A DNA stretch of 38,253 nucleotides, taken from IMG/VR virus record IMGVR_UViG_2778261538_000002; one strand, written 5' to 3'. The position numbers and the translations under genes are program-made. Position 1 is the first letter of the stretch. Every line of letters begins with the position of its first letter. The notes beneath the pieces were generated by a model, which ran no database searches, was not told the DNA's origin, and saw nothing but the letters and a program-made list of their open reading frames with translations. Shown here piece by piece: positions 1 through 36,800 of this stretch. This DNA is from a virus (Duplodnaviria; Heunggongvirae; Uroviricota; Caudoviricetes).

Positions 1-258
1 ATGCAAACCGTTATTTTTGGTCGTCCGGGTTGCCCTTACTGTGTGCGTGCAAAAGATCTGGCTGAGAAATTGAGCAATGAACGCGATGATTTCCAGTATC
101 AGTATGTAGATATTCGTGCGGAAGGGATCACTAAAGAAGATCTACAACAAAAGGCAGGTAAACCCGTAGAAACCGTGCCGCAGATTTTTGTCGATCAGCA
201 ACATATCGGCGGCTATACCGATTTTGCTGCATGGGTGAAAGAGAATCTGGACGCCTGA
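1..258 (+). CDS. grxA: glutaredoxin 1
   Basis: 85-aa ORF with CPYC redox motif (GRPGCPYCVRAK); matches E. coli GrxA as I recall it; stop TGA at 256-258. Confidence 0.93.
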   Translation: MQTVIFGRPGCPYCVRAKDLAEKLSNERDDFQYQYVDIRAEGITKEDLQQKAGKPVETVPQIFVDQQHIGGYTDFAAWVKENLDA

Positions 259-287
259 TCGTCTGACAAGCCCTCGCATTGAGGGCT

Positions 288-665
288 TTATTGATTTTTT
301 CTGTGCTGTGGTTTAAACAAACTACTGATAAATAAGAAACACAATGCCCCCAGCGCACACCAGAACACCGCACTTAATAACCATGCCAGCTCTTGCCAGA
401 ATGAGCGCGTCGGTGAAAAAAACAGCCGCATAATGAGCATCGAGCAGGGTGCCGCCAGCATTGCGCCAAACAGAGGTTTCAGGACTTCTCTACGATGTGA
501 AAAGAAGCTGGCAACTGCACCAGGAAGAATGAAAAATAGCAAACCGATTTCAGGATGCCCGGCAGCCCGAAAAGCGCCTTTCATGTGCGTCGCCAGAAAA
601 AGACACACCACAATGAAGAGGACAAAACAGCAGATTGCCCCCGCCCAACGTTGTTTATGTTTCAC
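288..665 (-). CDS. ybjM: inner membrane protein YbjM
   Basis: 125-aa hydrophobic ORF convergent with grxA, as in the E. coli K-12 neighbourhood (window is reverse-complemented relative to K-12). Confidence 0.8.
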   Translation of the reverse strand: MKHKQRWAGAICCFVLFIVVCLFLATHMKGAFRAAGHPEIGLLFFILPGAVASFFSHRREVLKPLFGAMLAAPCSMLIMRLFFSPTRSFWQELAWLLSAVFWCALGALCFLFISSLFKPQHRKNQ

Positions 666-934
666 TCGTTCCTCCTGACACTGCGTCTATCGAACACATT
701 TTTCGCCAGTGTGGCGTTCAGTAAGATAAAGCCGCTTCGCATTCCATGCTAATATAGGCCAACGCAATTCATATAGCCGTTGATACCTAATGTGATTACA
801 CTAGTAAAATATATTGTTACTTTACTATCGTTTAGGTGCGCTGAATGAATCTGCGCCCTGAATTCTGGTAAAAAACATTATCGTAAATTACCATTTCTTT
901 CAACAGCTTACTAGTAAACAAGAAGTTAGCCTCC

Positions 935-2620
935 GTGAATATAAACGTCGCCGAATTGTTAAATGGGAATTACATTCTGTTATTATTTGTGGTCCTCGCG
1001 CTTGGGCTATGTCTCGGGAAATTACGACTTGGTTCGATCCAACTGGGTAATTCCATTGGCGTTTTAGTCGTATCGCTGTTATTAGGCCAACAACATTTCA
1101 GCATTAACACCGACGCGCTTAATCTTGGCTTTATGCTGTTTATTTTCTGCGTCGGGGTCGAAGCCGGACCGAACTTTTTTTCCATTTTTTTTCGCGATGG
1201 GAAAAATTACCTAATGTTAGCACTGGTGATGGTTGGCAGTGCGCTGGTGATCGCCTTAGGGTTAGGTAAGCTGTTTGGCTGGGATATTGGCCTGACGGCC
1301 GGTATGTTAGCTGGCTCTATGACGTCGACACCGGTTCTGGTCGGTGCTGGCGATACACTGCGTCATTCCGGCATGGAAAGCAGGCAGCTCTCACTGGCAC
1401 TGGATAATCTGAGCCTCGGGTATGCCTTAACCTATTTAATCGGTCTGGTGAGTTTGATTGTTGGTGCGCGTTACTTGCCGAAATTGCAGCATCAGGACTT
1501 ACAGACCAGCGCCCAGCAAATCGCCCGCGAACGTGGCCTGGACACTGATGCCAACCGTAAGGTTTATTTACCGGTGATCCGCGCCTACCGCGTCGGCCCG
1601 GAGCTGGTGGCCTGGACCGACGGCAAAAATCTGCGTGAACTGGGTATTTATCGACAAACTGGCTGCTACATTGAACGTATTCGACGTAACGGGATTCTGG
1701 CAAATCCAGACGGTGATGCGGTGCTACAAATGGGCGATGAAATAGCGTTGGTAGGCTATCCCGACGCCCACGCCCGACTCGATCCCAGCTTCCGTAACGG
1801 CAAAGAAGTTTTCGATCGTGACCTTCTCGACATGCGTATCGTCACTGAAGAAGTGGTCGTTAAAAACCATAACGCCGTTGGCAAACGTCTCGCACAACTG
1901 AAGTTGACCGATCACGGTTGCTTCCTTAACCGCGTCATTCGTAGCCAGATTGAGATGCCGATAGATGACAACGTCGTGCTTAACAAAGGTGACGTTTTAC
2001 AAGTCAGCGGCGATGCCCGTCGCGTAAAAACCATCGCCGATCGCATCGGCTTTATCTCGATTCACAGCCAGGTCACTGACTTGCTGGCATTCTGCGCCTT
2101 CTTTGTTATTGGGCTGATGATCGGGATGATCACCTTCCAGTTCAGCACATTCAGTTTCGGCATGGGGAACGCTGCCGGGTTGTTATTCGCCGGAATTATG
2201 CTGGGATTTATGCGCGCTAACCACCCGACCTTCGGTTACATTCCGCAGGGTGCATTAAGCATGGTGAAAGAGTTCGGCTTAATGGTGTTTATGGCAGGCG
2301 TTGGTCTGAGCGCCGGTAGCGGTATTAATAACGGCCTGGGCGCGATTGGCGGTCAGATGTTGATTGCCGGATTGATTGTCAGTCTTGTGCCAGTGGTTAT
2401 CTGTTTCTTGTTCGGTGCTTATGTATTGCGAATGAACCGCGCACTGTTGTTCGGCGCAATGATGGGCGCACGCACCTGCGCGCCGGCAATGGAGATCATC
2501 AGTGATACAGCTCGCAGTAACATCCCGGCGCTGGGCTATGCGGGCACCTATGCAATCGCCAACGTCCTGCTGACGCTGGCAGGGACAATCATCGTCATGG
2601 TATGGCCAGGATTAGGATAA
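935..2620 (+). CDS. ybjL: putative AAE-family transporter YbjL
   Basis: 561-aa polytopic membrane ORF with central soluble domains; GTG start at 935; matches my recollection of E. coli YbjL. Confidence 0.88.
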
Positions 2621-2855
2621 AACTGAAGTTGCCCTGAAAATGAAATTTTTTTGCACAACCGCAGAACTTTTCCGCAGGGCATCAGTCTTAATTAGTGCCA
2701 CTGCTTTTCTTTGATGTCCCCATTTTGTGGAGCCCATCAACCCCGCCATTTCGGTTCAAGGTTGATGGGTTTTTTGTTGCCTTAAATTTATGCCGTTTAA
2801 AATCATGATGTTAGAAGCACTGTTTTTTAACGATGGCGACAAAATGGCGGCAGCG
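2621..2855. other. host-prophage junction; attachment site expected here
   Basis: interval between the ybjL stop and the first phage gene (ogr); exact core repeat cannot be defined because the other att lies outside the window. Confidence 0.4.
2733..2776 (+). terminator. rho-independent terminator downstream of ybjL
   Basis: perfect 10-bp inverted repeat cccatcaacc/ggttgatggg (2733-2742 and 2760-2769) followed by TTTTTT; loop is long (17 nt). Confidence 0.5.
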
Positions 2856-4265: not shown

Positions 4266-4747
4266 GACAGCAGCCCTCCCACCGTTTTACTGATATAGCT
4301 TAAGGCAGACGTTGCCGTGTCCTGCAGATTATTCAGTTGCGCACTAAGATCACCGAACATATCGGACAGGGATTCATCCACCCGTTTGAGCGACAAAGTG
4401 AACTCAATCCGGCGCGGCATACCATCGCGGAAAAACTCCGTTTTAGTCTGATTCAGTCCCTCAATCACATACATGCCGTAAATCGTGCCGCTGCCTTCAA
4501 TCAGAGGCCATGCTTTCCCCTGTTCTGCCATCTGCTCCAGTGCCAGCAACGACAGCCTGCCACCTGTTATCTCCGGCATAAGAACACCGGAAAGTGTCAG
4601 CATGTCGTTGTCCGGTCCCAGAAACTGCGTGGACGGACGTCGGTTTACCCGGCTGTTAGCCACATGTCGCCAGCTGCGTTGATACTGCAGTTCCTGATAC
4701 GGAACGGTGCGCAGCATAAACACGTACAATCCCAGCACCATCATCAT
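4262..4747 (-). CDS. U: tail protein U
   Basis: 161-aa ORF; start overlaps the T stop (ATGA); P2 gpU-like. Confidence 0.85.
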   Translation of the reverse strand: MMMVLGLYVFMLRTVPYQELQYQRSWRHVANSRVNRRPSTQFLGPDNDMLTLSGVLMPEITGGRLSLLALEQMAEQGKAWPLIEGSGTIYGMYVIEGLNQTKTEFFRDGMPRRIEFTLSLKRVDESLSDMFGDLSAQLNNLQDTATSALSYISKTVGGLLS

Positions 4748-7700
4748 GCGTCGTATCCCCCCTGATCGCTGTAGTTACTCCTGGCTTTTGCCTTCAGCCT
4801 GCGTTCACGTTCATCAAGCTGGCGTGCCACCTCCCGCGCAATATCCTGCGCACTTTGTCCTGGCTGCGTCTGGATGATGATCTGCGTCGGTGCCTCAATC
4901 CGGTGAACGGGCGGCACAGTAGCTGCGCGACTCACCATCGCTTTGCCGCCTTTCGCGGGAAGCGCCAAAGGATGCAACGGTGGAAGCTCTGCTGGCGCGG
5001 CAGCAACGCCCATCATTCCGGCAACAACGGCAGCCAGTGCAGCTGTATTTCTCCGGCTGGTCACATTTGCCGGGCCGTTAACAATTTCCGGCCCGTTTTC
5101 ACCGACGATGCCAAACTGCCCGCGCGGGATATACCCGCCGCTGTCATACATCCCCGCAAAGCCATATCCCCATGACGGAAAACCACCCGATGGCATCATC
5201 ACTTTGCCGTCTGCATTCACCGTCGCAGGTTGCTGACGCGTCACGCTTTCCGGTAGTTTTGCCTTTGCGGCCTCTTTACTGACAATGCCGAGTTTCTCCA
5301 GCAACCAGGAAACGCCGGATTTCAGGGAGTCCAGCGGATGCATGACCATATTCAGCCCTTCCGCCAGTGCCTCCCCGAATCGTCGCCCCATTGCCGCTGC
5401 GCTCTGCAGTTCGGCAGAGGTCGACTTAACGGGCGTCAGCAGATCAGTAAACCAGCCCCACAGAGCCTGCACTTTGTCACCAATCCACTGAAACACGGGC
5501 TTAAGTGGTTCGAATGCGGCACTGATGGGACCTACCGCCGCTTTGAGTCCTTCCACCACGCCACCGAGAAATGCGGTGATGGGTTGCCAGTATTTCCAGA
5601 CAACCAGCGCCACGCCCGCCAGTGCAGTAACCACAAGACCTATCGGACTGAGCAGAGCACCTAACAGACCAGATATGGCATACAGGGCAACGCGCAGCAT
5701 CACCAGCGGACCGGATGCCAGCACTCGCAACACTGCACCTGCGGCAGTCAGTCCACCGCGCAGTGCCGCCAGTGGATTCATAAACATCAAGGCAACAGCA
5801 CGTAAACCGGATAAACCGGACCGCAACAGTGCAACAGGCGCAGCTGCCACAGTTTTCAGGGCATTTCCCGTCAGTGATGCCGTGCGGCGCAAAGACAACA
5901 GCGGCGCAGTAAGCAAACCCGCACTGCTCCCCGATGAAGCAAACCCGCGTCGCAGCACTGCCAGTGGCGCGCCTGCCAGCCTGGATAACGCGCTGCTGGT
6001 TCGTGTTACTGCATCCGTCACCGAAGGTAACGTCTTGATACCCAGCACAGAGAATCCCAGACGGATGACTGCCAGCGGCCCCAGCACTGCAGCCAACACC
6101 ACAGCCAGGGTGCCGAGGCCCACGGTAACCGCAGCCACAACAGCGGCTACTTTCATCAGTGTGCCCGTCAGTTCCGGGTTAGCTTCCACCCAGCGACGCG
6201 ACGCCCCCGTGACGCTTTTCACCATGTACAAAATATCCATCAGCGGCTGGCGCAGCGTTTCGCCCAGGCTGCTGAAGGTGTTCTGCGCTCCGGTTTTGAC
6301 CAGCAACCACTGCGCAGAAAGTGAATCCTTGTTAATGTCGGATTCTTTCTGCATGGAGCCGAGCGCATCATTGCCCGCTGTCAGTTTTAGCTGGCGCTGC
6401 AGTTCCGGCAGGTTGTTTGCCAGTTTCGCCGCGTCATCGCCAAACTCTTTACCAAACAACATGGTCATGGCAGACAGGCGCTTATCCTGCGGAAGCGCAT
6501 TCACCTTCTCCAGTACGCGCTGGATGGTTCCCATCGCATCCTTCGTCATCTGCTTTTCAATCACTTCAGGATTGAGTTTCAGCAGATTCATTCCTTCAAA
6601 GAAACTCTTGCTCTGCATGGTGGCAATGGACAATTCACGCACCATCGCGTTTGCTGCACTGGCTGCAACCTCCGGCGCAGCACCCAGTGTCAGGAAGGTT
6701 GAACCCAGCGCCGCCGCTTTACGATAATCCAGACGGTCAGCCACACCGCCCAGGCGTTGCATGACATCAATGATGTCTGCCCCTTTCGACATGGCGTTAT
6801 CATCCAGATAGTTCAGCGCGTCACCGAGCTGTTCAATATTGCGGGTAGGGATTTTGTAGAGCTGGGCGATTTTCCCCAGACTTTCTGACAGTTCATCCGC
6901 TGGCAGCTCAAAGGCTGTTGCCGCCTTTGCTGCCGTGCTGGCGAAGGCCAGCAGGTCACGTTTCTGGTCTTCCCAGCTGTCGTCAGGGTTTGCGACGTTC
7001 ATGCGCGCACCACCTTCAACCAGTGCAGCGAAATCCACCGCACCGTTTTCCATCGGCAACTGTTCGCTGGCAGCCTTGATGGCATCCTGCATTTCATAAA
7101 AACGTGCAGTGCGGTTGCCATTATCGTCACGCAGACCATTGACCTGCTTTGCCACACCTTTCATGGCATCTTCCATGCTGGTATAGCTTTTTACTGCCGC
7201 CATCACTGGTGCGCCCATTGCCAGCCCTGCAGCCGTGGTGGTGGCTCCTGCACCTGCAATACGATCACGCACCTCCAGTGAACGAGCATAACTGGCACGC
7301 GCCGCATTCATCCTGCGCTGAGCTTCCCCCAGTCGCTTCAGCCGCGCCTCCTGTTTCGACAATTCCTGGTTATAACGTGATGTTTCACGTGCTAAACGGG
7401 CAGTTGCTCCCGCATCATCTTTCGCAGAAATTCCCGCCCGGTACAGTTCTGCACGCACAAGCGCCGTTTGCTTCTGCAAATATTTTTGTTGTTCTTCCAG
7501 GCGTTGGACTGCCAGCGTTTGCCGACCTAAAGCCACAAGGTGCCGTTGTGATGGTTGTTCCATCGCTTCCAGCTCAGAACTAAGCAAATTTGCCTTCTGT
7601 CTGGCATAGTTCAGCCTGTCGCCTAACTTTTTGTTATCGGCCTGCAGCTTGCGAAATTTTTCCAGGCTGTTACCCGCCTGATTGAGTTGCTTTAATGCGT

Positions 7701-14508: not shown

Positions 14509-14556
14509 GAGAGCGATCCTTGCACAACCGGGTAGAGTGATGTAATACAGAGCGTA

Positions 14557-14574
14557 TGTATGGAGAACCACACA
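14557..14574. promoter_or_regulatory. TGT-N12-ACA dyad (candidate Ogr box) between V and the divergent cargo gene
   Basis: TGTATGGAGAACCACACA read directly; could serve the V operon late promoter or the cargo gene. Confidence 0.35.
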
Positions 14575-14603
14575 AAAGAGAAACAATTTCTAAGGTATTT
14601 AAG

Positions 14604-15470
14604 ATGACACAAATCGCAATTTATGGATTTAATTTTACTAAAAAAATCACATTTGACGGTGGTGAGTTAACTCCTATTTTCAGTTCATGGAGTGAGTTAA
14701 AAAAAAATGGCTGGGCTAATGATAGGTACATCCTCACTGGTTTTTTCAAACCAAACTCGAATAACTACGCCACTCAACAGCAGCTTATTTTTGATTTACA
14801 AGCAGTCCTTAGTTTTATTGAACAAAAAAATGTAATCATTTCAGGAGAACTTGAAAATGATGAAACCCCTTTCAATTTCAAACCATCTCTACCCAAAAAG
14901 CTTGACAAAAAACGAGATAAGGGTGCGGGCATTATCATCATGGAAGATTATTTTGCACCAAACAGCCGAGAAAATTTTATTTGCTTAGCCATGGAAAAAC
15001 TAAATAGTAAAGCCATGCTAAAACAAGATGCCTTTAGAACATCATTTTTTAAATCAATGCTAGCTTTCCGCGACTCAATAAATTATATCGACGTCAGATA
15101 TTATTTATTATTCTCGGCACTAGAAGCACTTTGCAGATTTATTAAAAATGACTACTCCCCTGCCAAAACACCACAAATAATCACTCAGGTTTTAAAAGAA
15201 TATGGTTTTAATGTCGAAAAAACAGGACATACATTAGCTCAAAGAAACATTATGCATTACTGCAAACTCCGTCACTCGCTGTTCCACAATGGTAAATACA
15301 TTGCCTATCTTGATGAAAAAAACTCAGATGGCAAAATTGAAATTCAAGATTACTCATCAAATTTGAATTTACTGGTGCCACTTGTACTAATGAAATTCAT
15401 AGGATTTGATGACAATTATATAAACTGGGACTCATGGATTGATAGGAATCCATTTATCAGTAAAAAGTAA
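14604..15470 (+). CDS. hypothetical protein, AT-rich cargo gene at the P2 orf30 position
   Basis: 288 aa from Met17 of ORF 14556-15470 (AAGG RBS 8 nt upstream); opposite strand to the flanking tail genes V and S; Lys/Asn-rich composition unlike the neighbours; no motif I recognise. Confidence 0.7.
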   Translation: MTQIAIYGFNFTKKITFDGGELTPIFSSWSELKKNGWANDRYILTGFFKPNSNNYATQQQLIFDLQAVLSFIEQKNVIISGELENDETPFNFKPSLPKKLDKKRDKGAGIIIMEDYFAPNSRENFICLAMEKLNSKAMLKQDAFRTSFFKSMLAFRDSINYIDVRYYLLFSALEALCRFIKNDYSPAKTPQIITQVLKEYGFNVEKTGHTLAQRNIMHYCKLRHSLFHNGKYIAYLDEKNSDGKIEIQDYSSNLNLLVPLVLMKFIGFDDNYINWDSWIDRNPFISKK

Positions 15471-24266: not shown

Positions 24267-25346
24267 CTAACATTGTTTACATAAATCAGAAAAACTACCA
24301 CCGAAATAATACAGTGCAGATTTATCATTTAGTTCTTTAAAAACTTCACACGCACGCTGGTGTATCTCAATAGCACTAGATTTATTTCGTCCAATAATAA
24401 CAGTCTCTTTTTCAGTACTATCGCCATCCAGAAAAGTCTTCAAAAGAAAATTAATAATAAAGTCTTCCTTTGGGAAAGAATAACCTATAAAGATCAACAG
24501 ATCTGCTTGTCTCAACTGGGTAGAGGATTTCACAAAAGCTGTCTTAAAGTATTTATCCCCATAGTCTTGTTCATTTGAAGGCAAGATAATATTTGGAACA
24601 ACTTTTGCGTTCAATAATGAATCATAATCTATTTTAAAACCATCCCTTGCAGCAACAACCTCAAATCCTCCATTAAGCTTATACAAACCTATACCTTTAG
24701 GCTGAGGACACACTAATATATTATTATGATGCACAGGAAAACCCCGATTAACTGAACGTTCAGGGAATGCATGATGTAGCACTTTATCAATAACTATATC
24801 GTAGTTTGTTGTGACTACATCCAGTGCTGAAGCTTCCTGTAAACTCTTAAAGAAAGAAATAATATTCCTTTTATTCTGCCCAAATTTTGCAGTTTGACTT
24901 AGCTTTAAATCATTTGCCGGTATTTTTTTTGCAAACTTATTTTTTACATATAGTTTTACTTGTGCCTCAAACAACTCAAGCGTATGCCTATCAAGATACG
25001 ACGGCAATAAACTTGGATATCGCTTATAAACATCCAATGCATATTTAAAACTCTTGAAAACATTAGCTTTGTCATCTAAACCTGCATTAGCATCCGCCCA
25101 TTTAAATTTAAGACTGTCGAACAAAGAAAAAAAACCATACTCATCAATATTTTCTAATGCTTCGTCTTCAGAGATGGAAAAGACTTCATTACTCAATGGG
25201 TATTTGTCATCCCAGGCTTTAGAAAATCCTGCTCCGAGAAAAACACATACTCTTCGCTCTCTTATTTTTGATTTCAATGTGGCGAAGGATGTAATTTCTA
25301 AATTATTAGGTGTCAAAATATCACCATCATAAGCAAAGCTAGTCAT
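24267..25346 (-). CDS. SIR2-like domain protein (candidate NADase effector)
   Basis: 359 aa; RVCVFLGAGFS Rossmann motif near the N-terminus, TTNYD motif, His cluster (VLHH, PVHH) and IFIGYSFP motif, which I recognise as the SIR2_2 (PF13289-type) pattern; AT-rich; starts 14 nt after the ATPase stop. Confidence 0.7.
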   Translation of the reverse strand: MTSFAYDGDILTPNNLEITSFATLKSKIRERRVCVFLGAGFSKAWDDKYPLSNEVFSISEDEALENIDEYGFFSLFDSLKFKWADANAGLDDKANVFKSFKYALDVYKRYPSLLPSYLDRHTLELFEAQVKLYVKNKFAKKIPANDLKLSQTAKFGQNKRNIISFFKSLQEASALDVVTTNYDIVIDKVLHHAFPERSVNRGFPVHHNNILVCPQPKGIGLYKLNGGFEVVAARDGFKIDYDSLLNAKVVPNIILPSNEQDYGDKYFKTAFVKSSTQLRQADLLIFIGYSFPKEDFIINFLLKTFLDGDSTEKETVIIGRNKSSAIEIHQRACEVFKELNDKSALYYFGGSFSDLCKQC

Positions 25347-25359
25347 GTTTTTCTCACGC

Positions 25360-26589
25360 TTAGTTTTTTATATCAAGAAAAGCTGGAACTAATCCAAATT
25401 CGCCACGTAAATATTTGGCAGACACTTTAGCATCTTTCCTTACAGAAAATACCGTAGCATTAGTTATTATCGACGCTTTAGATGAATCCTTGACTATAAT
25501 ATTAAGCTCATCTCTTCTAAACACATCATCTAATAAAGGAATATTATGTGTAGACATAATAAACTGCACACCATTTTTACGGCAGGTTTTATCAAATATT
25601 TTTTTGATTAGTGCACTTGCCAAAGAATAGTGAATAGATGAATCTATTTCATCCACATAAAGTGTAAAATCATATTCACTAGCCCAAATCAATATTGCTA
25701 AAAATGTTAAAACATTTAGTGTGCCTTGGGAAAAAAATTCATCCCTACGGTCAGGGCCTATTCTAGTAAAATCACCATCATCATTTTTTATGAGATAAAC
25801 AAATTTATACTCATTATCTTCGCCAAATCTTACAAATTCAACTTTATCTATATGCAGCGGCGACTGAATAACCATTTCATTATAGGTATTTAAAATTCTT
25901 TGACCACTCTCATTTAATTTTTCATTTCCTTCCTCACCTGATAACTGGCGCTTAAGTTGTCCTTCAACAAATTTAAGACTTGGATTTTTGAATTTTTCAG
26001 AGTAATAAGGCAATTGTTTTAATGCCCAGCGTTGGGTTTCAACAAGAGCATCAATTTCTAAAGATTTTGCAAAAGTTACAACAGCTCCACTTTCTCTTAA
26101 GACAGGATTAATCAACGACTCGTATTTTTTTAAGTCGGGCTTTTTGAAAACCAACCCATTTTCATTGCGAATAAAAATACATTGTTCCCTTGCACTTTTT
26201 CTTATCGGTCTAATGTATAAATACTCATCTACAATAACTTCATTTAAAACTGACACACCATAACGGACGAAGTTTTTTTGCTCTTCATCAATCAGTATCG
26301 CTTCATAGGAAGTAGGTTTGTTACGACATTCCTTATTTAGAAGGAAAGGCATATGCAATTTGTGTAATGTGTCACTATGAATTGAATTTGCAAATTCAGT
26401 AATAGCATTTATTAATTGTGTTTTACCAACACCATTTCCGCCTATTAATGCGGCAAATCTGTTTACTCTTAAACCATTCGCTAATGTCACGATATGTTCA
26501 GGATGCTCATCCCCAATTGAGGAAGCAAAACTAAGAACCTGTCTTTCGCGAAAGCTCTTGTAATTTTCTAAACTGAATGCAACTAGCAT
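25360..26589 (-). CDS. ABC/AAA_15-21-type ATPase (candidate defense sensor)
   Basis: 409 aa; Walker A GGNGVGKT, Walker B LYVDEID, H-loop-like FIMSTHN; GAGGA RBS; AT-rich; no TOPRIM or coiled-coil evident. Confidence 0.75.
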   Translation of the reverse strand: MLVAFSLENYKSFRERQVLSFASSIGDEHPEHIVTLANGLRVNRFAALIGGNGVGKTQLINAITEFANSIHSDTLHKLHMPFLLNKECRNKPTSYEAILIDEEQKNFVRYGVSVLNEVIVDEYLYIRPIRKSAREQCIFIRNENGLVFKKPDLKKYESLINPVLRESGAVVTFAKSLEIDALVETQRWALKQLPYYSEKFKNPSLKFVEGQLKRQLSGEEGNEKLNESGQRILNTYNEMVIQSPLHIDKVEFVRFGEDNEYKFVYLIKNDDGDFTRIGPDRRDEFFSQGTLNVLTFLAILIWASEYDFTLYVDEIDSSIHYSLASALIKKIFDKTCRKNGVQFIMSTHNIPLLDDVFRRDELNIIVKDSSKASIITNATVFSVRKDAKVSAKYLRGEFGLVPAFLDIKN

Positions 26590-26704
26590 CTGAAGTCCTC
26601 ATTTTTGCGTAAAAAACGCATTTTTGACTATTTCGGTAATGTAATCCAGTGCTAACGCAAAAGCAACTTAACATTTTATGTTATATTATTAATTATGTAT
26701 CCGC

Positions 26705-26735
26705 GCGCGCTCGTATCCCCGCCACGCCTGCCCGC
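26705..26735. other. putative cos site (cohesive end)
   Basis: - strand reads GGCGTGGCGGGGATACGAG; the first 13 nt match the P2/186 cohesive-end sequence as I recall it (GGCG[A/T]GGCGGGGAAAGCA). Confidence 0.5.
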
Positions 26736-27037
26736 TTTATGCAGTGGTTTTCATGCACCTGCATGACATGAGTAAAAGCCCGCCAGTTCTAGCAGGTCTC
26801 TGCAAAAACGATCCTCAATCGATCATGCGATTTCATGCAGCATAGTCATGCACAGCCGAGGGAAGCGTAAATCCGTATCTGAATGACCGCTGAAAAGCGA
26901 ATCATACGGGTTTACAAAGATGAAAGTCCGCTGTGAACGAGAAACGGACTATGATACTAACAAGAGAGCATCACTGTTAATATTTGAACAATTAATGCTC
27001 AGCTATTTATCTATTTTACAATCAGAAAGGACTTGTA

Positions 27038-27424
27038 ATGGTTACGGTTGATGAATTAAAGATGAAATATCCGGACGCGAATGCCTGGCAAGTGGGCGAC
27101 AGCCCTGAACTGGCTAACGAGCTTGCAGCACTTATCAAAAAAGGGATTAAAACGGCCTCCTGCGGCTCTTATGCCTCTTACCAGAAGGAAGAGTTTGCCC
27201 CAAGGATTGGGAGCTATAACATCATCCTTAACGGCCAGGATGTACCGGTATGCGTGACCCGGCTAGTGTCGATGCGACTGGTGCGTTTTTGTGATGTTAC
27301 TGCCGAGTTCGCTCGCAAGGAAGGTGAAGGCGATTTGAGTCTTGAATATTGGCAGAGAGAGCATCAACGATTTTTTACATGTGAAGGTTACTTTTCTGAC
27401 GATATGGAGCTGATTATGGAATAG
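27038..27424 (+). CDS. ASCH-domain protein
   Basis: 128 aa; ASCH/PUA-like pattern (LIKKGIKTASCG ... FARKEGEGDLSLEYWQREHQRFF); AAAGGA RBS. Confidence 0.7.
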   Translation: MVTVDELKMKYPDANAWQVGDSPELANELAALIKKGIKTASCGSYASYQKEEFAPRIGSYNIILNGQDVPVCVTRLVSMRLVRFCDVTAEFARKEGEGDLSLEYWQREHQRFFTCEGYFSDDMELIME

Positions 27425-28224: not shown

Positions 28225-30639
28225 TTAATACAGGTTCCGCCATTTATCATCCTCCTGCAGACGCTGGTTCCGATAGAAGATACGCAGGCCTGCTTCTGAC
28301 GGAATACTGCCGCCGCGAAGGAGTAAATCGACCTCTTTCTCGCTGCCATCAAATCCTCTGGACTTCAGCTCATAGACGAGCTGCAGTCGTTGATGGTCTG
28401 TAATTCGCTGTTTGTAGTCTTTACGCCGTATCGGTTTAACCAGGCGTAACCTTGCAGCCAGTTCCCGGCGCTCTTTTTTGCTCATACTGTGCAGGTAATC
28501 GTGCAACTCCTTGTCATCCATGCGGGTAATGTCCGTTCTGGTGTCCCCATCAGCTGATTTATCTTTCTCCTGTTGGTTCAAATTTTCAGCAAGGGGACAG
28601 TTATTGCCACGAGTCCAAGGGGCGCAAGCGCCCTGGTCGGCTGCCGCCTCCTGAACGTCAACGGCCTTACGAACCATTTTCCACTTCACGGCATGAGTGC
28701 AGATCTTGCCCTCTGCAATGGGTGACCAGATGCCATAAATACGAATGCCGTGATCGCCATAGGCGGTCGGCTCTTCGTTAATTTCATAAGCGGTTCTGAT
28801 GAGGTGATATTTGCGGGGAACCAGTACGCCGCCCTGCTTCATGATGTAGGTGGCAAAACAACCAGCATCAGCAGCAGCCAGGATGGCATCAAGGCGCGGG
28901 TTATCCAGTACCGGCGCACCTGCTTTTTTGTCGCCCTGTTGCCTTGCCGCCTGACCAGCCAGCAATCGCAGTTCACGGTAAGCCTGACGCCCCGGAATGC
29001 CAAAGAAGCGGAATTGCTGAACACGATGCAGAGACGCCCAGGCATTAACGTATTCAGCGTTATCACGCAGGGATTTACCCGTTTCCTTACTGATCTCGCC
29101 AGCCAGACCACGCCCGTCAATGTTCTTACTGATGTATTTCGCGATGTAGCTTGTTGGCGTACCTTTGCGCGGGTTTATCAGCTCAGACTTAAAGCGTGGT
29201 CCCGTGTTATTACCCAGCTCCTCGCGGTCTTCACGAATGGCAAACTTACGCAACAAAGCAGTAATGGCGCGGCGATCTTTTTTGCGCATAAAACACAACA
29301 GGTGCCAGTGAACTGTACCGTCATGATGCGGCTCAGCCACCCGCACGCCATACCAGCGCAATCCGGCTTTGTGCATCGCCTTACGAAATGCAGCAAACAT
29401 GCCGACCAGATAATCACTGCTTTGTCTTACCGTCGCATTTGTCCAGGTCGGGTTGGGCCTGCCGTTATTTAGCGTGGAATGGAAACGTGACGGACAGGTG
29501 ATGGTGTAGAAAACGGCGCAGTCACCGCGCATTTCCGCGATAAGCTCCAGACCTTTAACACAGGCCATCATCTCATTGCGGCGATGCGCAGGGTTGCTGC
29601 TGCTGGCGTTTACCACATCCTCCATGTCCAGCGTGTCGCCGTCTTCGTTCACCAGTTCATGAGAACGGAAAAACTCCAGCGACTTACGGCGCTGCTCACG
29701 TTTATGCATCACGGCTTCATAGCTGACATAGGGAGATGCTTTTTTGCTGACCAGGCAAACAGCACGCAACTGCTCTTCCCGCCATTCGCAACGCATCTTC
29801 CATAATTTCCGGTACCACCAGTCGGCGCACAACATACGCGCCAGCGAACCCGGAATGAGTTCATAGGGCACGGGTTTACGGCGGTTTCTTTTCCGGCGGA
29901 GTTGCTCAAACGCAGGCGGTATGACATCCAGTCGCAGGGTTTCTGCTGCCACCTTTTCCCATGTCTTGCGGATTTCTTCTGGCTTAACATCATCGGTGGC
30001 GTACAAATCACCACAAGCGGCATCAAGACACATGCTCATATGCGCAGCGACAAGAGTAGACAGGCGTTTCACCTGATCCTGACTCATTTCAGGCAAGTTC
30101 AGCAGGCCGTCCAGCCCTTCATGGCTTGCCATAAAGCGAAAAGAAGTGGATAGCTGACTCTCGCGTACATGCTCCAGTCGTTCCAGACATGGCTTAATCG
30201 TCTCACGCAAATAGCGGGAATAAGCCTTTGGCCTGCCCAGGCTGCTGAAGTATTCAATACGTTGCATCAGCGGCTTGCTGATATGGGAAGGCTGGGCGTT
30301 AACGTCCGCCAGTATGACCATGTCCGGATTAAAACGCTGCTGCTCATGCGCCAGCTTTGCCCGGCTAATGAGCTTATCCTGCTCCATTTCGCGTTGGACA
30401 GGATCACGGGATTCATTAAAGAAATAACGCTCCCAGACCTGATCACTCAGTGCCTCGAGGCGCAGTTGTTCCTGCTCGTTATCGGCAGCGTACAGAGTGA
30501 TCAGGTTTGAAAGCGCAGAAACCGGCGCAACTTCCGCCGGGTCCAGATAAGGGTTAATAGCCTTTTTCGGGCTGTTCCATGAGAATGCTGCGGCGGCCTC
30601 GTTAAAGCCGCTGCAGTTGTTCATATCAGCATGGCTCAT
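28225..30639 (-). CDS. A: replication initiation protein A (rolling-circle nickase)
   Basis: about 804 aa from the ATG at 30639 (ORF track begins at an upstream TTG); HUH-type [10 protein letters not shown] motif and tyrosine pair YIAKYISK; ATGA-coupled to dam. Confidence 0.88.
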
Positions 30640-31493
30640 GCACGCACTCCGTACACGACGGAACAATCCACGCCACGCGAAGGATCAAATCCTACCCAGC
30701 AGCGCGGCCCGGAAACAGCGATGATTTCTGTTGCAGATTTACTCTCACCAGCTGCCACGCCGATGCTGCGTTTTGCCTTGATGTAGTGGTGAGTAAAATT
30801 GCGATACAGCGAACGGATCAGGGATGTGTCACTGTTAGAAACAATGACCGGATGTCCTTCTGATGACCGATGTTCAAGAACGGATGCCAAGTGATACTGG
30901 TCATCTTCAGTGAAGCCGTCAGTGTGATAGCCGGAAAACGTACCGTCATAAGGCGGATCGCAATACACCACATCCCCCGCCTTCAACATCGCCAGCGTTT
31001 CATCAAAGCTTGCGCAGATAAACGTTGCCCGCTGGGCTTTCTCTGCAAATGCGCGAATTTCTTTTTCAGGGAAATACGGATTTTTATAATTACCGTACGG
31101 AATGTTGAAATGCCCGCTCTTGTTATAGCGACATAACCCACGGTAACCATGACGATTGAGATACAGGAAATATACCGCTTTCATGAAATCAGTAATTTCA
31201 GTGGAGTAATTAAACTCCTGCCTTATGTTGTAATAAGCCACCTCCCTGTTTGCTTCCTCAAATAAAGCTCTGGCACGAGATATAAACGCCTCGCAATCAG
31301 CAGCAACCTTTTTATAGAGGTTGATTAAATCAGGATTAATATCCGCAACAAGATAGCTGGGGTAATCCGTCTCCATCATCACAGCACAGGAACCCGCGAA
31401 AGGTTCAACCAGTCGCGGGCCTGCAGGAAGATGTTTTTTCAGTTCGGACATAATGGCGGTTTTATTTCCCGCCCATTTCAGGATGGTGCTCAT
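30636..31493 (-). CDS. dam: DNA adenine methyltransferase (Dam-like)
   Basis: ORF 30636-31553 trimmed to Met21 ([11 protein letters not shown]); motif [10 protein letters not shown] and motif IV DPPY. Confidence 0.85.
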
Positions 31494-31717
31494 ACAACAC
31501 CTCCGTTGTAATGTTTGCCTTTCAGCTCTGCGATTTCCTGACAGGTAATGCAAAGCTGCACTCCAGGAATGGCGCGGCGTCGTGCTGGCGGAATTGGCGC
31601 TTCACATTCAATACAAAGCACACGAGACACGCCCGGTGTTTTGGCACGGGCAGCACGGATATAGCGCTGGCGTTCTTCTTCAACGCGCTGCTGTACGAGA
31701 TCCATTGCATCAGCCAT
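31490..31717 (-). CDS. DksA/TraR-family C4 zinc-finger protein
   Basis: 75 aa; CIECEAPIP...CITCQE zinc finger; position equivalent to P2 orf82. Confidence 0.75.
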   Translation of the reverse strand: MADAMDLVQQRVEEERQRYIRAARAKTPGVSRVLCIECEAPIPPARRRAIPGVQLCITCQEIAELKGKHYNGGVV

Positions 31718-33544: not shown

Positions 33545-33632
33545 GATGCAACATCTCCTTTTAGCTTGTGGTGAGCTGGTTTTAATCGTGATAACAACAT
33601 CACAAAACGGAGAATAGGTTCACATAACGAAC
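33545..33632. promoter_or_regulatory. lysis-lysogeny switch region (pR/pL and operators)
   Basis: 88-bp interval between apl and the repressor gene; architecture by analogy with 186; individual promoters not resolved. Confidence 0.5.
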
Positions 33633-34583
33633 ATGTCAACTCAAAAATTCACATTTCGCCATATCAAAGAGGATGCGAAAGCCATTGTTATGCAGAATCG
33701 TGGGGGACAGAAAGTCATTGAGCGAATACTCAAAGCTTATGGCTTCAAGTCACGCCAAGCGTTCTGTAACCATCTTGGTATTTCACAAAGTACGATGGCC
33801 AATAGATATGCTCGCGATACATTTCCTGCTGATTGGGTTGTTATATGCTCAATGGAAACAGGAGCATCTTTGGAATGGCTGGCGTTTGGTTCTGATGCGG
33901 CAGAAGAAATACTCTCAACTGCTCCAAATGGATACAACGAAGACGACCAGCGAGATGACGTTGAAAGTGACAATCATATACCTTCCTTTAATTTTCATAA
34001 TGATCATCAAGTCGATTTCAATCAGGGAGGAAAAGCGGCAATAGAACGGATAGTTAAGGCTTATGGCTTTAAAACTCGTCAAGCACTGGCAGATCATCTT
34101 GGTATATCAAAAAGTACATTAGCTACACGCTATATGCGTGACTCATTCCCTGCTGATTGGATAATACAGTGTGCCCTTGAAACTGGATTCTCATTGAAAT
34201 GGCTTGTTGATGGGCAAGGACTTAATAAAAGTTCACAAAATGAAAACATTGTGTGCATAAACAAGTACGTGCTTGCCGATGGTGCACTCGAAATGAAGGG
34301 TAACTACATTTTTGATAAGTCCTTTGTACCTAAGTCGATTAAAGATCCAATGTTAATATTTGATGGCAGCAGGATATACTTAGCTGAGGGGAACTTTGAC
34401 GAAATTAGCGATGGATTGTGGTTTGTTGAAATTGAAGGAAAAATCAGTGTTCGCGAGGTAATAAGAATACCGGTAGGTAAAGTAAGAGTAACGAGCTCAA
34501 ACTCAAATATTACTTTTGACTGTGCAATTAATGAACTCAAACCGGTTGCAAAATGCCAGTTCAACCTAATGACTATAATATAA
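33633..34583 (+). CDS. cI: CI-type immunity repressor with duplicated N-terminal HTH domain
   Basis: 316 aa; two tandem copies of a 186-CI-like HTH module (ERILKAYGFKSRQAF...HLGISQSTMANRY..FPADW and ERIVKAYGFKTRQAL...HLGISKSTLATRY..FPADW) plus a CI-like C-terminal domain. Confidence 0.8.
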   Translation: MSTQKFTFRHIKEDAKAIVMQNRGGQKVIERILKAYGFKSRQAFCNHLGISQSTMANRYARDTFPADWVVICSMETGASLEWLAFGSDAAEEILSTAPNGYNEDDQRDDVESDNHIPSFNFHNDHQVDFNQGGKAAIERIVKAYGFKTRQALADHLGISKSTLATRYMRDSFPADWIIQCALETGFSLKWLVDGQGLNKSSQNENIVCINKYVLADGALEMKGNYIFDKSFVPKSIKDPMLIFDGSRIYLAEGNFDEISDGLWFVEIEGKISVREVIRIPVGKVRVTSSNSNITFDCAINELKPVAKCQFNLMTII

Positions 34584-34614: not shown

Positions 34615-35733
34615 ATGTCTAGAAGTTTTGCTATTTGGGGATGCCGAAACTACGCTAAAGGCCCAGGAGAGGATTATAATGAGACTCAAGCAGATTTTAT
34701 AAACGAACTACACATCAACTTTTGGAATATCACATCCCAAAAATGCTATCATCTAGATTTTGGCATATCATTTTCTCGCCCCCAAGATAATGAAATTTCA
34801 GAACAGGGTGCAATCTGTTTATTTTTACCGTTTGTAAAAGAAAAAGATGACTTCATTGATTTAAGTACGAACCTAGATAGCAGCAAAGAACTGATCACCG
34901 CGGTTTTTAATGAATACGTCATAAATAAAGACTCAATAAACGAGAAACACTTATTATTAAATTTAACACGAAAAGGTAAACTAATAGTTAATACAAAACT
35001 TGATTTTCAAGGGGGGGCATTCGACAAAAGAATCACATTGAGAAAGAGGAATGATGGGACATATGTATTTTTCCATCTGCAGGATTGTTTGTCTAATTGC
35101 AATAATTGCAATTACTACATCAGATTCAGAATTAACCTAAATGAATCTGATGTTGAAGCAATTGTTAAAACATTCTATCCAAAAGATTTATTCTTAAAAA
35201 GCAATATTGAACGTTCTGATATTATAGATTTCAGAATTAACGAACAAAGAAATTTGCCAAACGAAGTCGCAACCACACTGGCCAGCGCCTCTTGCACTCC
35301 AAGCAAATATCATTTTTTCGTTATACGAGATATGGTTGACGAAGCATCGGCATCAGGTTCAAGCTATCAAGGTTGTCGTATTCTTGAATCAGAGACATGG
35401 AAAAAATACTTTTCAAATAATGTCAATTTTGGTAAGAACGATCCTATGATTTACCACTGGAAAGCTAAAAAGGATGATGGCGCACGGCTAGGTGACTTCT
35501 CTGTAGTAGTGAAGTTCAAGACTACTAAATCAAAAATTAGTAAAATATTTACATATATGTTCTATGCTGCAGCCATAGCATACATAATGAAATTTATTCC
35601 AACAGATGGTGTGCATAAAGACATTTATCTAATTTGCACCATTGCATTTATTGTAGCTTACATTGCCGCTCACTTTATTAAACCACAAAAATTATCCAAC
35701 TTTATTGCACTGGTGAAAAAATGGAAAAATTAA
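34615..35733 (+). CDS. hypothetical protein with C-terminal transmembrane helices (cargo gene 1)
   Basis: 372 aa; large soluble N-terminal region, two hydrophobic helices near the C-terminus; AT-rich; 32 nt after the cI stop. Confidence 0.7.
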   Translation: MSRSFAIWGCRNYAKGPGEDYNETQADFINELHINFWNITSQKCYHLDFGISFSRPQDNEISEQGAICLFLPFVKEKDDFIDLSTNLDSSKELITAVFNEYVINKDSINEKHLLLNLTRKGKLIVNTKLDFQGGAFDKRITLRKRNDGTYVFFHLQDCLSNCNNCNYYIRFRINLNESDVEAIVKTFYPKDLFLKSNIERSDIIDFRINEQRNLPNEVATTLASASCTPSKYHFFVIRDMVDEASASGSSYQGCRILESETWKKYFSNNVNFGKNDPMIYHWKAKKDDGARLGDFSVVVKFKTTKSKISKIFTYMFYAAAIAYIMKFIPTDGVHKDIYLICTIAFIVAYIAAHFIKPQKLSNFIALVKKWKN

Positions 35734-36800
35734 AACACATTCAGTTTAATGAAGTTAATTTTAACGATGTTTTTTTTGACTCCTTAAAAAAAGACTATCA
35801 ACATGGATTTATCGATTGGTTCAATAAAAAATGTAATTCTATCGAAGAAAAAGCTTATGTCTTATATAATGATGACAACACAATTGATGGTTTTTTATAC
35901 TTGAAAATTGAGCGTGGTATTATTGACGACGTAATACCACCTTTGACTCGTGCTAAACATCTAAAAATAGGCACATTTAAATTCAACCCGAAGGGGACTC
36001 TACGAGGACAAAGATTCCTCAAAAAGATTTTTGATCATGCACTAAAAGAAAAAGTAGATGATATCTATGTGACTGTTTTTGAAAAACATGATTATTTAAT
36101 TAGACTATTCAAAATTTATGGTTTTATTCATGTTGCTACAAAACAAACTGCTAATGGTAGTGAACAAGTCTTAGTAAGAGAGATGAATAAAAATCATCTT
36201 ACAGGGGATATTTTGTCTGATTATCCGTATATAAATAATAGCAACGATGAAAACAAATATCTGTTATCCATATATCCTGAATTCCATACAAAACTGTTTC
36301 CTGATTCGATACTCACCACAGAGTCCCCTGATATAATCACGGATGTATCTCATGCGAATAGCATTAGAAAAATATATATATGCAGAATGCATGACGTAAA
36401 AAAAATAAAAAGACATGACATTTTAGTTATTTACAGAACAAGTGACAAAGAAAACAGAGCGTATTATCGCTCTGTCGCAACGTCATTATGTGTAGTTGAA
36501 GATATTAGACATATTGATTCTTTTTATAGTGAAAAAGAATTCATACAGTATTGTACACGATACAGTGTATTCTCTGAAAATGAATTAAAAAAATCCTATC
36601 AAACAAAAAGATACCCTTACATTATTAGTTTTACATATAATCTAGCTTTACCTAAAAGAATAAACCGTGCTAAACTAATCAAAGAAATTGGTTTAAATCC
36701 TAAAAACCGTTGGGGTGTTGTTAAATTAACCGATGAGCAATTTGACGATATAATTAAACTTGGTGCTGTAGATGAAAGTATTATTGTCAATAAAACCTGA
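35721..36800 (+). CDS. hypothetical protein, N-terminal GNAT-like fold fused to an unknown C-terminal domain (cargo gene 2)
   Basis: 359 aa; N-terminal 150 aa have GNAT-like topology (…KIGTFKF…RGQRFLKKIF…YLIRLFKIYGF…); overlaps neighbouring genes at both ends. Confidence 0.65.
   Translation: MEKLKHIQFNEVNFNDVFFDSLKKDYQHGFIDWFNKKCNSIEEKAYVLYNDDNTIDGFLYLKIERGIIDDVIPPLTRAKHLKIGTFKFNPKGTLRGQRFLKKIFDHALKEKVDDIYVTVFEKHDYLIRLFKIYGFIHVATKQTANGSEQVLVREMNKNHLTGDILSDYPYINNSNDENKYLLSIYPEFHTKLFPDSILTTESPDIITDVSHANSIRKIYICRMHDVKKIKRHDILVIYRTSDKENRAYYRSVATSLCVVEDIRHIDSFYSEKEFIQYCTRYSVFSENELKKSYQTKRYPYIISFTYNLALPKRINRAKLIKEIGLNPKNRWGVVKLTDEQFDDIIKLGAVDESIIVNKT

Follow-up and report, generated by a model that had tools for sequence, protein, structure and literature searches.

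A Dam-family adenine methyltransferase gene next to the replication gene of a P2/186-like prophage, and the GATC content of its relatives

The dam gene and its operon

The window analysed here is a stretch of 38,253 nucleotides, the IMG/VR virus record IMGVR_UViG_2778261538_000002 (Caudoviricetes), most of which is a P2/186-like prophage of Escherichia coli. On its minus strand, between a TraR-like gene and the replication gene A, lies a dam gene for a protein of 285 amino acids (aa). An earlier sequence-only reading had placed at this point an orphan Dam-family methyltransferase that belongs to the early operon and overlaps both of its neighbours by ATGA; the profile matches, motifs, overlaps and gene order reported below bear out each of these statements. 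The coordinates of all features are collected in Table 1.

The Pfam model PF02086 (MethyltransfD12) matches residues 7–244 of the dam product with an E-value of 1e-77 and 261.8 bits (cut-off 22), and the NCBIfam model TIGR00571, “Dam family”, reaches 325.3 bits against a cut-off of 114.85 (E-value 3e-97). As sequence matches to family profiles these are far beyond chance. The best solved relative is E. coli Dam (structure 2g1p, together with 4gol; E-value 2.9e-74), followed by DpnM and T4 Dam (7e-18 for the latter), and the product shares 48% identity with E. coli Dam over 258 aligned columns. It is not an orthologue of the chromosomal Dam of the host. The equivalog model for the latter, NF008152, gives 291 bits, below its cut-off of 441, and the location, inside a prophage between the TraR-like gene and gene A, is also unlike the chromosomal dam locus. 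Among PADLOC models, “orphan methyltransferase” fits best (3.5e-112). No cognate nuclease gene lies beside dam, where the neighbours are the TraR-like gene, DUF2732 and DUF5347 genes and the gene for gpA, and the arrangement is not that of a Type II restriction-modification system.

The S-adenosylmethionine-binding motif I (PFAGSCAV, residues 31–38) stands N-terminal to the catalytic motif IV, which is the alpha order. Six of its residues, F32, A33, G34, S35, C36 and A37, are invariant across 54 family members. The phenylalanine and first glycine of the FxGxG-like motif are kept, and the position of the second glycine is a cysteine that is invariant within the clade. The DPPY of motif IV is kept in 104–105 of 106 homologues. 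The aspartate and proline codons of this DPPY (GAT CCG) themselves form a GATC site, which places the presumed target inside the codons of the active site.

The reading of GATC by E. coli Dam has been assigned to seven residues (PMC4417163). The first base pair is recognised by K9 and Y138, the third is contacted by L122 and P134, R124 touches the guanine of the fourth, Y119 intercalates and N120 gives a hydrogen bond to a base. Six of these seven are kept in the dam product, where K6, Y117, L120, R122, P132 and Y136 are the equivalents of K9, Y119, L122, R124, P134 and Y138, and at least 104 of 106 homologues keep them.

The minus-strand early run reads, from the A end, A, dam, TraR-like gene, DUF2732, DUF5347, cII and apl/cox, with the CI repressor gene divergent. 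Judged from the Pfam assignments of the open reading frames (ORFs) of the window against the annotated genomes of 186 and P2, the order apl/cox, cII, DUF2732, DksA-like zinc finger, a variable slot and A, divergent from CI, is that of P2/186-like phages (Peduoviridae). The dam start codon overlaps the stop codon of the TraR-like gene, and the dam stop codon overlaps the start codon of A. A Shine-Dalgarno sequence lies 6 nucleotides (nt) ahead of the dam ATG, and a second one, within the 3′ end of dam, lies 7 nt ahead of the A ATG. A consensus scan located a pR-like promoter candidate between the repressor and apl/cox genes, at a position matching pR of 186, and no comparable minus-strand promoter just upstream of dam. 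This candidate probably drives the operon that contains dam. By analogy with 186, from whose annotation the role of CI is taken, the early operon, including dam, would be silent in the lysogen. The repressor itself contains two copies of the Phage_CI_repr helix-turn-helix (approximately residues 24–85 and 135–197, a visible repeat) followed by a single C-terminal domain; its 316 aa compare with ~198 aa for the product of the 597-nt cI gene in a close relative.

The slot between the DksA-like gene and A is occupied differently in related phages. In 186 it contains three non-essential ORFs (orf82, exonuclease-like; a DUF5405 gene; and orf84, PAPS-reductase-like); in the 186 record, A overlaps orf84 by 4 nt and its translation appears to need translation through the end of that ORF. 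In P2 the slot holds orf83 and in PSP3 an ORF of 173 aa, and in some relatives of the present prophage it is either empty or holds a PAPS-reductase-like gene. One such dam-less relative (L066, 15980–16990, minus strand) has a PAPS-reductase-domain gene, like 186 orf84, upstream of A. Given these varied occupants, dam is one of several alternatives in an accessory slot, and the coupling to A belongs to the slot rather than to dam.

Table 1. Features of the dam locus, followed by other features of the window (aa, amino acids; nt, nucleotides; ORF, open reading frame).
Feature	Position	Strand	Description
dam	30636..31493	-	orphan Dam-family (D12 / alpha-class) N6-adenine DNA methyltransferase, 285 aa; ATG at 31493, stop 30636-30638; PF02086, TIGR00571 and 2g1p matches
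motif I (S-adenosylmethionine-binding)	31380..31400	-	FAGSCAV, residues 32-38; aligned to PFVGAGSV of E. coli Dam
DNA-recognition hairpin	31086..31145	-	residues 117-136: Y117, R118, L120, R122, P132, Y136
motif IV (catalytic)	30948..30959	-	DPPY, residues 179-182; aligned to DPPY 181-184 of E. coli Dam
GATC site in motif IV	30956-30959		formed by the D-P codons
clade-specific C-terminal tail	30639..30704	-	residues 264-285 (22 residues)
Shine-Dalgarno of dam	31500-31504		GGAGG
Shine-Dalgarno of A	30647-30650		GGAG, within the dam tail
ATGA overlap	31490-31493		TraR-like stop / dam ATG (plus-strand tcat)
ATGA overlap	30636-30639		dam stop / A ATG (plus-strand tcat)
TraR/DksA-like gene	31490..31717	-	C4 zinc finger, 75 aa; PF01258 3e-11; TIGR02419 65 bits (cut-off 59.7)
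gene A	28225..30639	-	rolling-circle replication initiator (nickase), 804 aa (MSHADMNN...); PF05840 8.7e-128
putative origin nick region	28600..28632	-	GCGCCCCTTGGACTCGTGGCAATAACTGT, inside gene A; resembles P2 GCGCCTCGGAGTCCTGTCAATAACTGT
pR-like early promoter candidate	33611..33639	-	TTGACA-17-TATTCT, 10/12 consensus matches
CI-type immunity repressor	33633..34583	+	316 aa; PF07022 5e-60, PF16452 2e-25
E. coli chromosome	1-2650		grxA-ybjM-ybjL
rybB	2700-2778	+	small RNA gene; Rfam RF00110, 105 bits
304-aa ORF	14556-15470	+	gap between tail genes V and S, in opposite orientation to them
SIR2-like protein (359 aa) and AbiLi/AriA-like AAA ATPase (409 aa)	24267-26589	-	Pfam, PADLOC; between portal and DinI-like genes
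ASCH-domain gene	27038-27424	+	128 aa; PF04266 1.5e-19; variable region downstream of A and DinI-like gene
372-aa protein and PDC-M11A candidate defence protein	34615-36800	+	PDC-M11A E-value 7e-139; between repressor and integrase

GATC content with and without a phage methyltransferase

Selection against the GATC tetranucleotide in enterobacteriophages is described or cited in PMC5014478 (with reference to McClelland 1984 and to Deschavanne and Radman 1991). The same source describes or cites that host Dam methylates phage DNA poorly and that dam- mutH+ hosts give a lower phage yield. The GATC content of Peduoviridae was expressed as the ratio of observed to expected sites, the expectation being that of an order-2 Markov model, and a phage was taken to be methyltransferase-free when neither tblastn nor a screen for ORFs with motif IV found such a gene (Table 2). 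Among phages of Dam-positive host groups, every value with a methyltransferase lies above all those without one (Mann-Whitney p = 0.001; 0.0025 when each genus contributes a single value). GATC is depleted 5- to 8-fold in 186 and P2.

Table 2. Observed/expected GATC in individual phages and in IMG/VR loci anchored on the portal gene.
Phage or group	Methyltransferase	GATC	Remarks
186	none	0.13	14 sites in 30.6 kb
P2	none	0.20	25 sites in 33.6 kb
PSP3	none	0.22	
ST147-VIM1phi7.1	none	0.37	
P88	none	0.48	
500465-2	none	0.53	
K139	annotated enzyme of different size, 205 aa	0.58	
HP1	annotated enzyme of different size, 173 aa	0.63	
YenM_42.18	D12 enzyme, 54% identical	0.64	upstream of A
present prophage	dam	0.67	105 sites in 35.5 kb
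Yersinia MLG42	unannotated dam, 74% identical	0.81	directly upstream of A
Kp4871-3	D12 homologue, 37% identical	0.89	
Kp4849-1	D12 homologue, 41% identical	0.94	
IMG/VR P2-like (n=64)		median 0.22	range 0.12-0.42
IMG/VR 186-like (n=65)		median 0.30	range 0.12-0.58
IMG/VR window-like (n=66)		median 0.77	range 0.65-0.92

The IMG/VR loci repeat this separation, the range of the window-like loci being clear of those of the P2-like and 186-like loci. Of all 256 tetranucleotides, GATC differs most between the groups in the homologous 11-kb structural module: it is 7.1 times as abundant in window-like as in P2-like loci and 3.35 times as abundant as in 186-like loci, and the next best tetranucleotide differs 1.35-fold. 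That GATC is the one tetranucleotide with relieved depletion points, indirectly, to GATC as the probable target of the enzyme.

Peduoviridae of Ralstonia and Pseudomonas are not depleted in GATC (0.92, 0.92 and 1.13). These hosts lie outside the Dam/MutH group; for Pseudomonas putida, a published abstract notes only MutS and MutL in the species. The lack of depletion in their phages ties GATC depletion to the Dam/MutH host context.

Role of the phage enzyme

The reading we prefer, with a probability of roughly 0.6, is that a GATC-specific Dam made together with the replication initiator keeps the rolling-circle progeny methylated and thereby removes the cost of under-methylated GATC. It is built on what the sequences show: membership of the Dam family, catalytic and GATC-contact residues that are intact, the lack of a partner nuclease, the position and coupling in the operon, and the lineage-level association with GATC. 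The product of this gene of a temperate P2/186-like phage would be an active orphan Dam with specificity for GATC, held off in the lysogen by CI along with the rest of the early lytic operon. On induction, coupled translation from the TraR-like gene through dam to A would make Dam appear together with the rolling-circle initiator. Its most likely job would then be the full methylation of GATC in fast-replicating phage DNA at a time when host Dam is limiting. The cost so removed would be that of unmethylated or hemimethylated GATC in a host with Dam, MutH and SeqA, chiefly MutH incision and breaks driven by mismatch repair, and as a by-product the progeny DNA would resist methylation-sensitive GATC nucleases. 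With the cost lifted, the phage lineage would no longer need to avoid GATC. We infer the activity of the enzyme, the timing of its expression and the part of MutH as selective agent, and that it is a GATC methyltransferase is far more secure than the last of these.

Several findings weigh against this reading. The GATC specificity of the product is a prediction, and the base-contacting N120 of E. coli Dam is replaced by arginine (R118) in all 106 clade members, a change shared by only 9 of 113 diverse representatives of the Dam family. Few independent lineages stand behind the association with GATC, the statistics ignore phylogeny, the margin between the groups is narrow (0.53 against 0.58), and the present prophage is itself still mildly depleted (0.67). 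MutH, SeqA, restriction and other costs that depend on GATC would all look alike in this comparison. Eight window-like IMG/VR loci in which the TraR-like gene abuts A and dam is absent hold whole-locus values of 0.70–0.85, so that a phage Dam is not strictly required for that GATC level over that timescale. In the near-complete genome of one such phage (L064 plus L253), tblastn, the motif-IV screen and Pfam searches of the novel ORFs found no methyltransferase. In the structural module of a divergent window-like subgroup, dam-less members have values of 0.56–0.79 versus 0.77–0.93 in their dam-bearing sisters (p = 0.003). Recent loss followed by slow erosion, or exchange of modules, would give this pattern, which is not proof of either.

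The sequence-only reading had offered protection of phage DNA from GATC-type restriction, or modulation of replication and gene expression, as possible roles; these are the standard ones for such a gene. The comparative GATC data favour the protective, cost-lifting side of that proposal. In its anti-restriction form, Dam would pre-methylate the progeny against nucleases of the MboI/DpnII type, or against other defences triggered by unmodified DNA, that await it in the next host. Such a role fits an orphan methyltransferase carried by a phage with several defence and counter-defence cargo loci, phage methyltransferases are commonly protective (general knowledge; discussed in PMC4659465), and relief from GATC avoidance would follow just as well from past selection by restriction. 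The hosts of the clade (E. coli, Klebsiella and Salmonella), however, all have a Dam of their own, so that a GATC nuclease sensitive to N6-methyladenine cannot coexist with it there and the infecting DNA is already largely methylated. The confinement of depletion to Peduoviridae of Dam-positive hosts, to the exclusion of those of Ralstonia and Pseudomonas, also points to Dam/MutH rather than to restriction in general, and we regard the anti-restriction role as unlikely. Regulation of the phage itself, with methylated GATC sites timing transcription, packaging or the choice between lysis and lysogeny, has precedents in pac cleavage of P1 and lysogeny of the Stx phage 933W. The predicted co-expression of dam with the replication initiator is in keeping with it, as is the influence of host Dam on the excision of the related prophage SopEPhi (PMC7380047). 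The distribution of sites speaks against this part of the proposal. The CI/apl switch region (33545–33632) contains no GATC, the nearest GATC is ~85 nt from the putative origin nick site, and the 105 sites are spread across the whole prophage instead of being clustered at control regions. The putative origin was placed by aligning the A protein with its counterparts in P2 and 186, for which origin sites are annotated; a direct search for the P2 or 186 origin sequence gave no match within 8 mismatches in 30. Since regulation also leaves the genome-wide relief of GATC avoidance unexplained, it appears rather improbable.

A burst of Dam could alternatively be aimed at the host, hyper-methylating the chromosome and blinding MutH-directed mismatch repair and SeqA sequestration in favour of phage replication or recombination. 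Dam overproduction is mutagenic in E. coli, and operons of this type carry host-directed early functions, such as fil and dhr of 186, which inhibit host division and replication. Such a takeover does not by itself predict that GATC is retained only in phages with a methyltransferase, and it seems very unlikely. It is also conceivable that the ORF mainly delivers ribosomes to the A start and that its methyltransferase activity is dispensable. The occupants of the slot in other phages lend themselves to this interpretation: three different non-essential ORFs in 186, of which the last is needed for translation of A, orf83 in P2, and a PAPS-reductase-like gene or none in some relatives. The catalytic and DNA-contact residues of the dam product are nevertheless invariant or nearly so in more than 100 homologues that share 72–97% identity and show abundant synonymous change, which shows selection on the enzyme itself and makes a mere coupler the remotest of these explanations.

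The 22-residue C-terminal tail distinguishes the phage enzyme from E. coli Dam, which has none, and all other representatives of 50%-identity clusters align only to about residue 260. Eight tail residues (W266, G268, D270, G274, D276, S278, V279 and V283) are conserved within the clade, and because each is encoded by several synonymous codons, the constraint acts at the level of the protein. The last three to four residues overlap the Shine-Dalgarno sequence of gene A. The conserved positions mostly alternate (W266, G268, D270, G274 and D276, then S278-V279 and V283), a pattern expected of a beta-strand or hairpin. AlphaFold2, run with an alignment of 54 sequences, gave a poor model (mean predicted local distance difference test score 60, below 50 in the tail) and no confident fold for the tail. 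One speculation, to which we give little credence, is that the tail is a peptide with which the methyltransferase docks onto the phage replication machinery, be it gpA or the clamp or helicase of the host. If it were true, nascent rolling-circle DNA would be methylated at the fork, by a replication-coupled rather than a freely diffusing Dam.

Within one phage family and the same hosts, then, the presence of a GATC methyltransferase goes with 3- to 7-fold more GATC, an effect confined to this tetranucleotide and not seen where the hosts lack the Dam/MutH system. The contrast is a clean natural example of what was proposed decades ago, namely that enterobacteriophages pay a price for under-methylated GATC. 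GATC content also offers a cheap way of predicting from genomes the specificity of a methyltransferase and which temperate phages depend on host Dam.

Prophage context and known relatives

The first 2,650 nt of the window are E. coli chromosome and are 100% identical to strain A42; the remainder is the P2/186-like prophage, inserted beside rybB and ybjL. The gene for the small RNA RybB lies exactly at the junction of the ybjL flank and the prophage, which makes this the likely attachment site, and the Rfam scan of the window returned only this gene, with nothing near dam. From there the prophage runs through tail genes, capsid and terminase genes, a cargo hotspot, a DinI/Tum-like gene, the early operon, CI, further cargo and the integrase gene. 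The pair of SIR2-like and ATPase genes occupies the cos-adjacent hotspot where relatives hold retron Ec67 and St85-type effectors. At a cos-proximal hotspot of a dam-less window-like relative (L076, 11079–13161, minus strand), a 400-aa ORF with a DLFAGAGG motif, by this motif a putative C5-cytosine methyltransferase and the only methyltransferase candidate of that locus, stands beside a 303-aa ORF. Phage vB_EcoM-813R9 lacks the ASCH gene at the corresponding place. Neither Pfam nor PADLOC matches the 372-aa protein, whose C-terminus is hydrophobic, or the 304-aa ORF, in place of which relatives hold other cargo.

The suggestion that the ASCH proteins or the defence cargo might relate to base modification found no support and was rejected: Pfam and PADLOC show no Dam-partnered nuclease or modification reader, the ASCH and defence genes sit in variable hotspots, and close relatives keep dam with different cargo.

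The phage dam gene itself is already known and ordinary, and many entries for phages and for E. coli carry it as an annotated gene. It is present in 1239 of 5426 complete E. coli genomes (23%), with an identity of 90–99% in nearly all matching genomes. The exact protein is in public collections as “DNA adenine methylase”, and “retron EC67 DNA adenine methylase” is the label of a protein with 96% identity and likewise 285 aa. A gene of this kind was reported in 1990 by Hsu, Inouye and Inouye, the title of whose paper names a Dam methylase function. The Dam of retron-Ec67, or retronphage phiR67, has the same length, host species and type of prophage (186-related; Dodd & Egan 1996) as the present one; the labelled protein is presumably the original one, judging by its annotation. 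The retron-Ec67 element differs in carrying its retron in the cos-adjacent hotspot, where the present prophage has the SIR2/ATPase pair and no retron.

The order TraR-like gene, dam, A is annotated in Fels-2, Salmonella RE-2010, Klebsiella 4LV2017, Escherichia vB_EcoM-813R9 and a Klebsiella pneumoniae prophage, and the records of RE-2010, 4LV2017 and other Klebsiella phages share 95–97% nucleotide identity with the dam region. From the Felsduovirus-like Peduoviridae (Fels-2, SopEPhi, RE-2010, 4LV2017 and vB_EcoM-813R9) the prophage differs only in its cargo genes and repressor. Unannotated full-length Dam-family genes lie just upstream of A in two Yersinia phages, at 25989–26837 of PP599993 (L244; 74% identical) and at 4346–5125 of NC_070913 (L246; 54% identical, PF02086 4e-69). 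Among the database proteins P0008, P0009, P0083, P0054 and P0058, some fuse the phage Dam to gpD-like or gpA-like sequence, and one 90%-identity cluster mixes entries for the 285-aa Dam and the 804-aa replication endonuclease, probably through such fusion calls. M.EcoMIV of the ST131 strain EC958 is a prophage-borne Dam homologue of the D12 class that is reported to be transcriptionally silent (PMC4659465); the 50-kb stretch examined for it does not contain this enzyme, and a tie to the present dam is not established.

With the host Dam of E. coli, the phage enzyme shares the fold family, the DPPY motif and the GATC-reading residues K9, Y119, L122, R124, P134 and Y138. It differs in the exchange of N120 for arginine, the extra 22-residue tail, its phage-borne location and its predicted expression from a lytic operon. 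The ORFs upstream of A in 186 and P2 stand in the same slot, with the same 4-nt or a short overlap with A, but encode unrelated proteins. Other phage Dams have been listed from T4/T2, P1, HP1 and VT-2/933W (PMC7556043). These are likewise orphan phage enzymes that methylate GATC, but their sequences are distant or place them in another class of methyltransferase (HP1 orf13 has 173 aa), and they occupy different genome positions. Of their phages, HP1 is also one of the Peduoviridae, and its methyltransferase likewise lies in the early/replication region.

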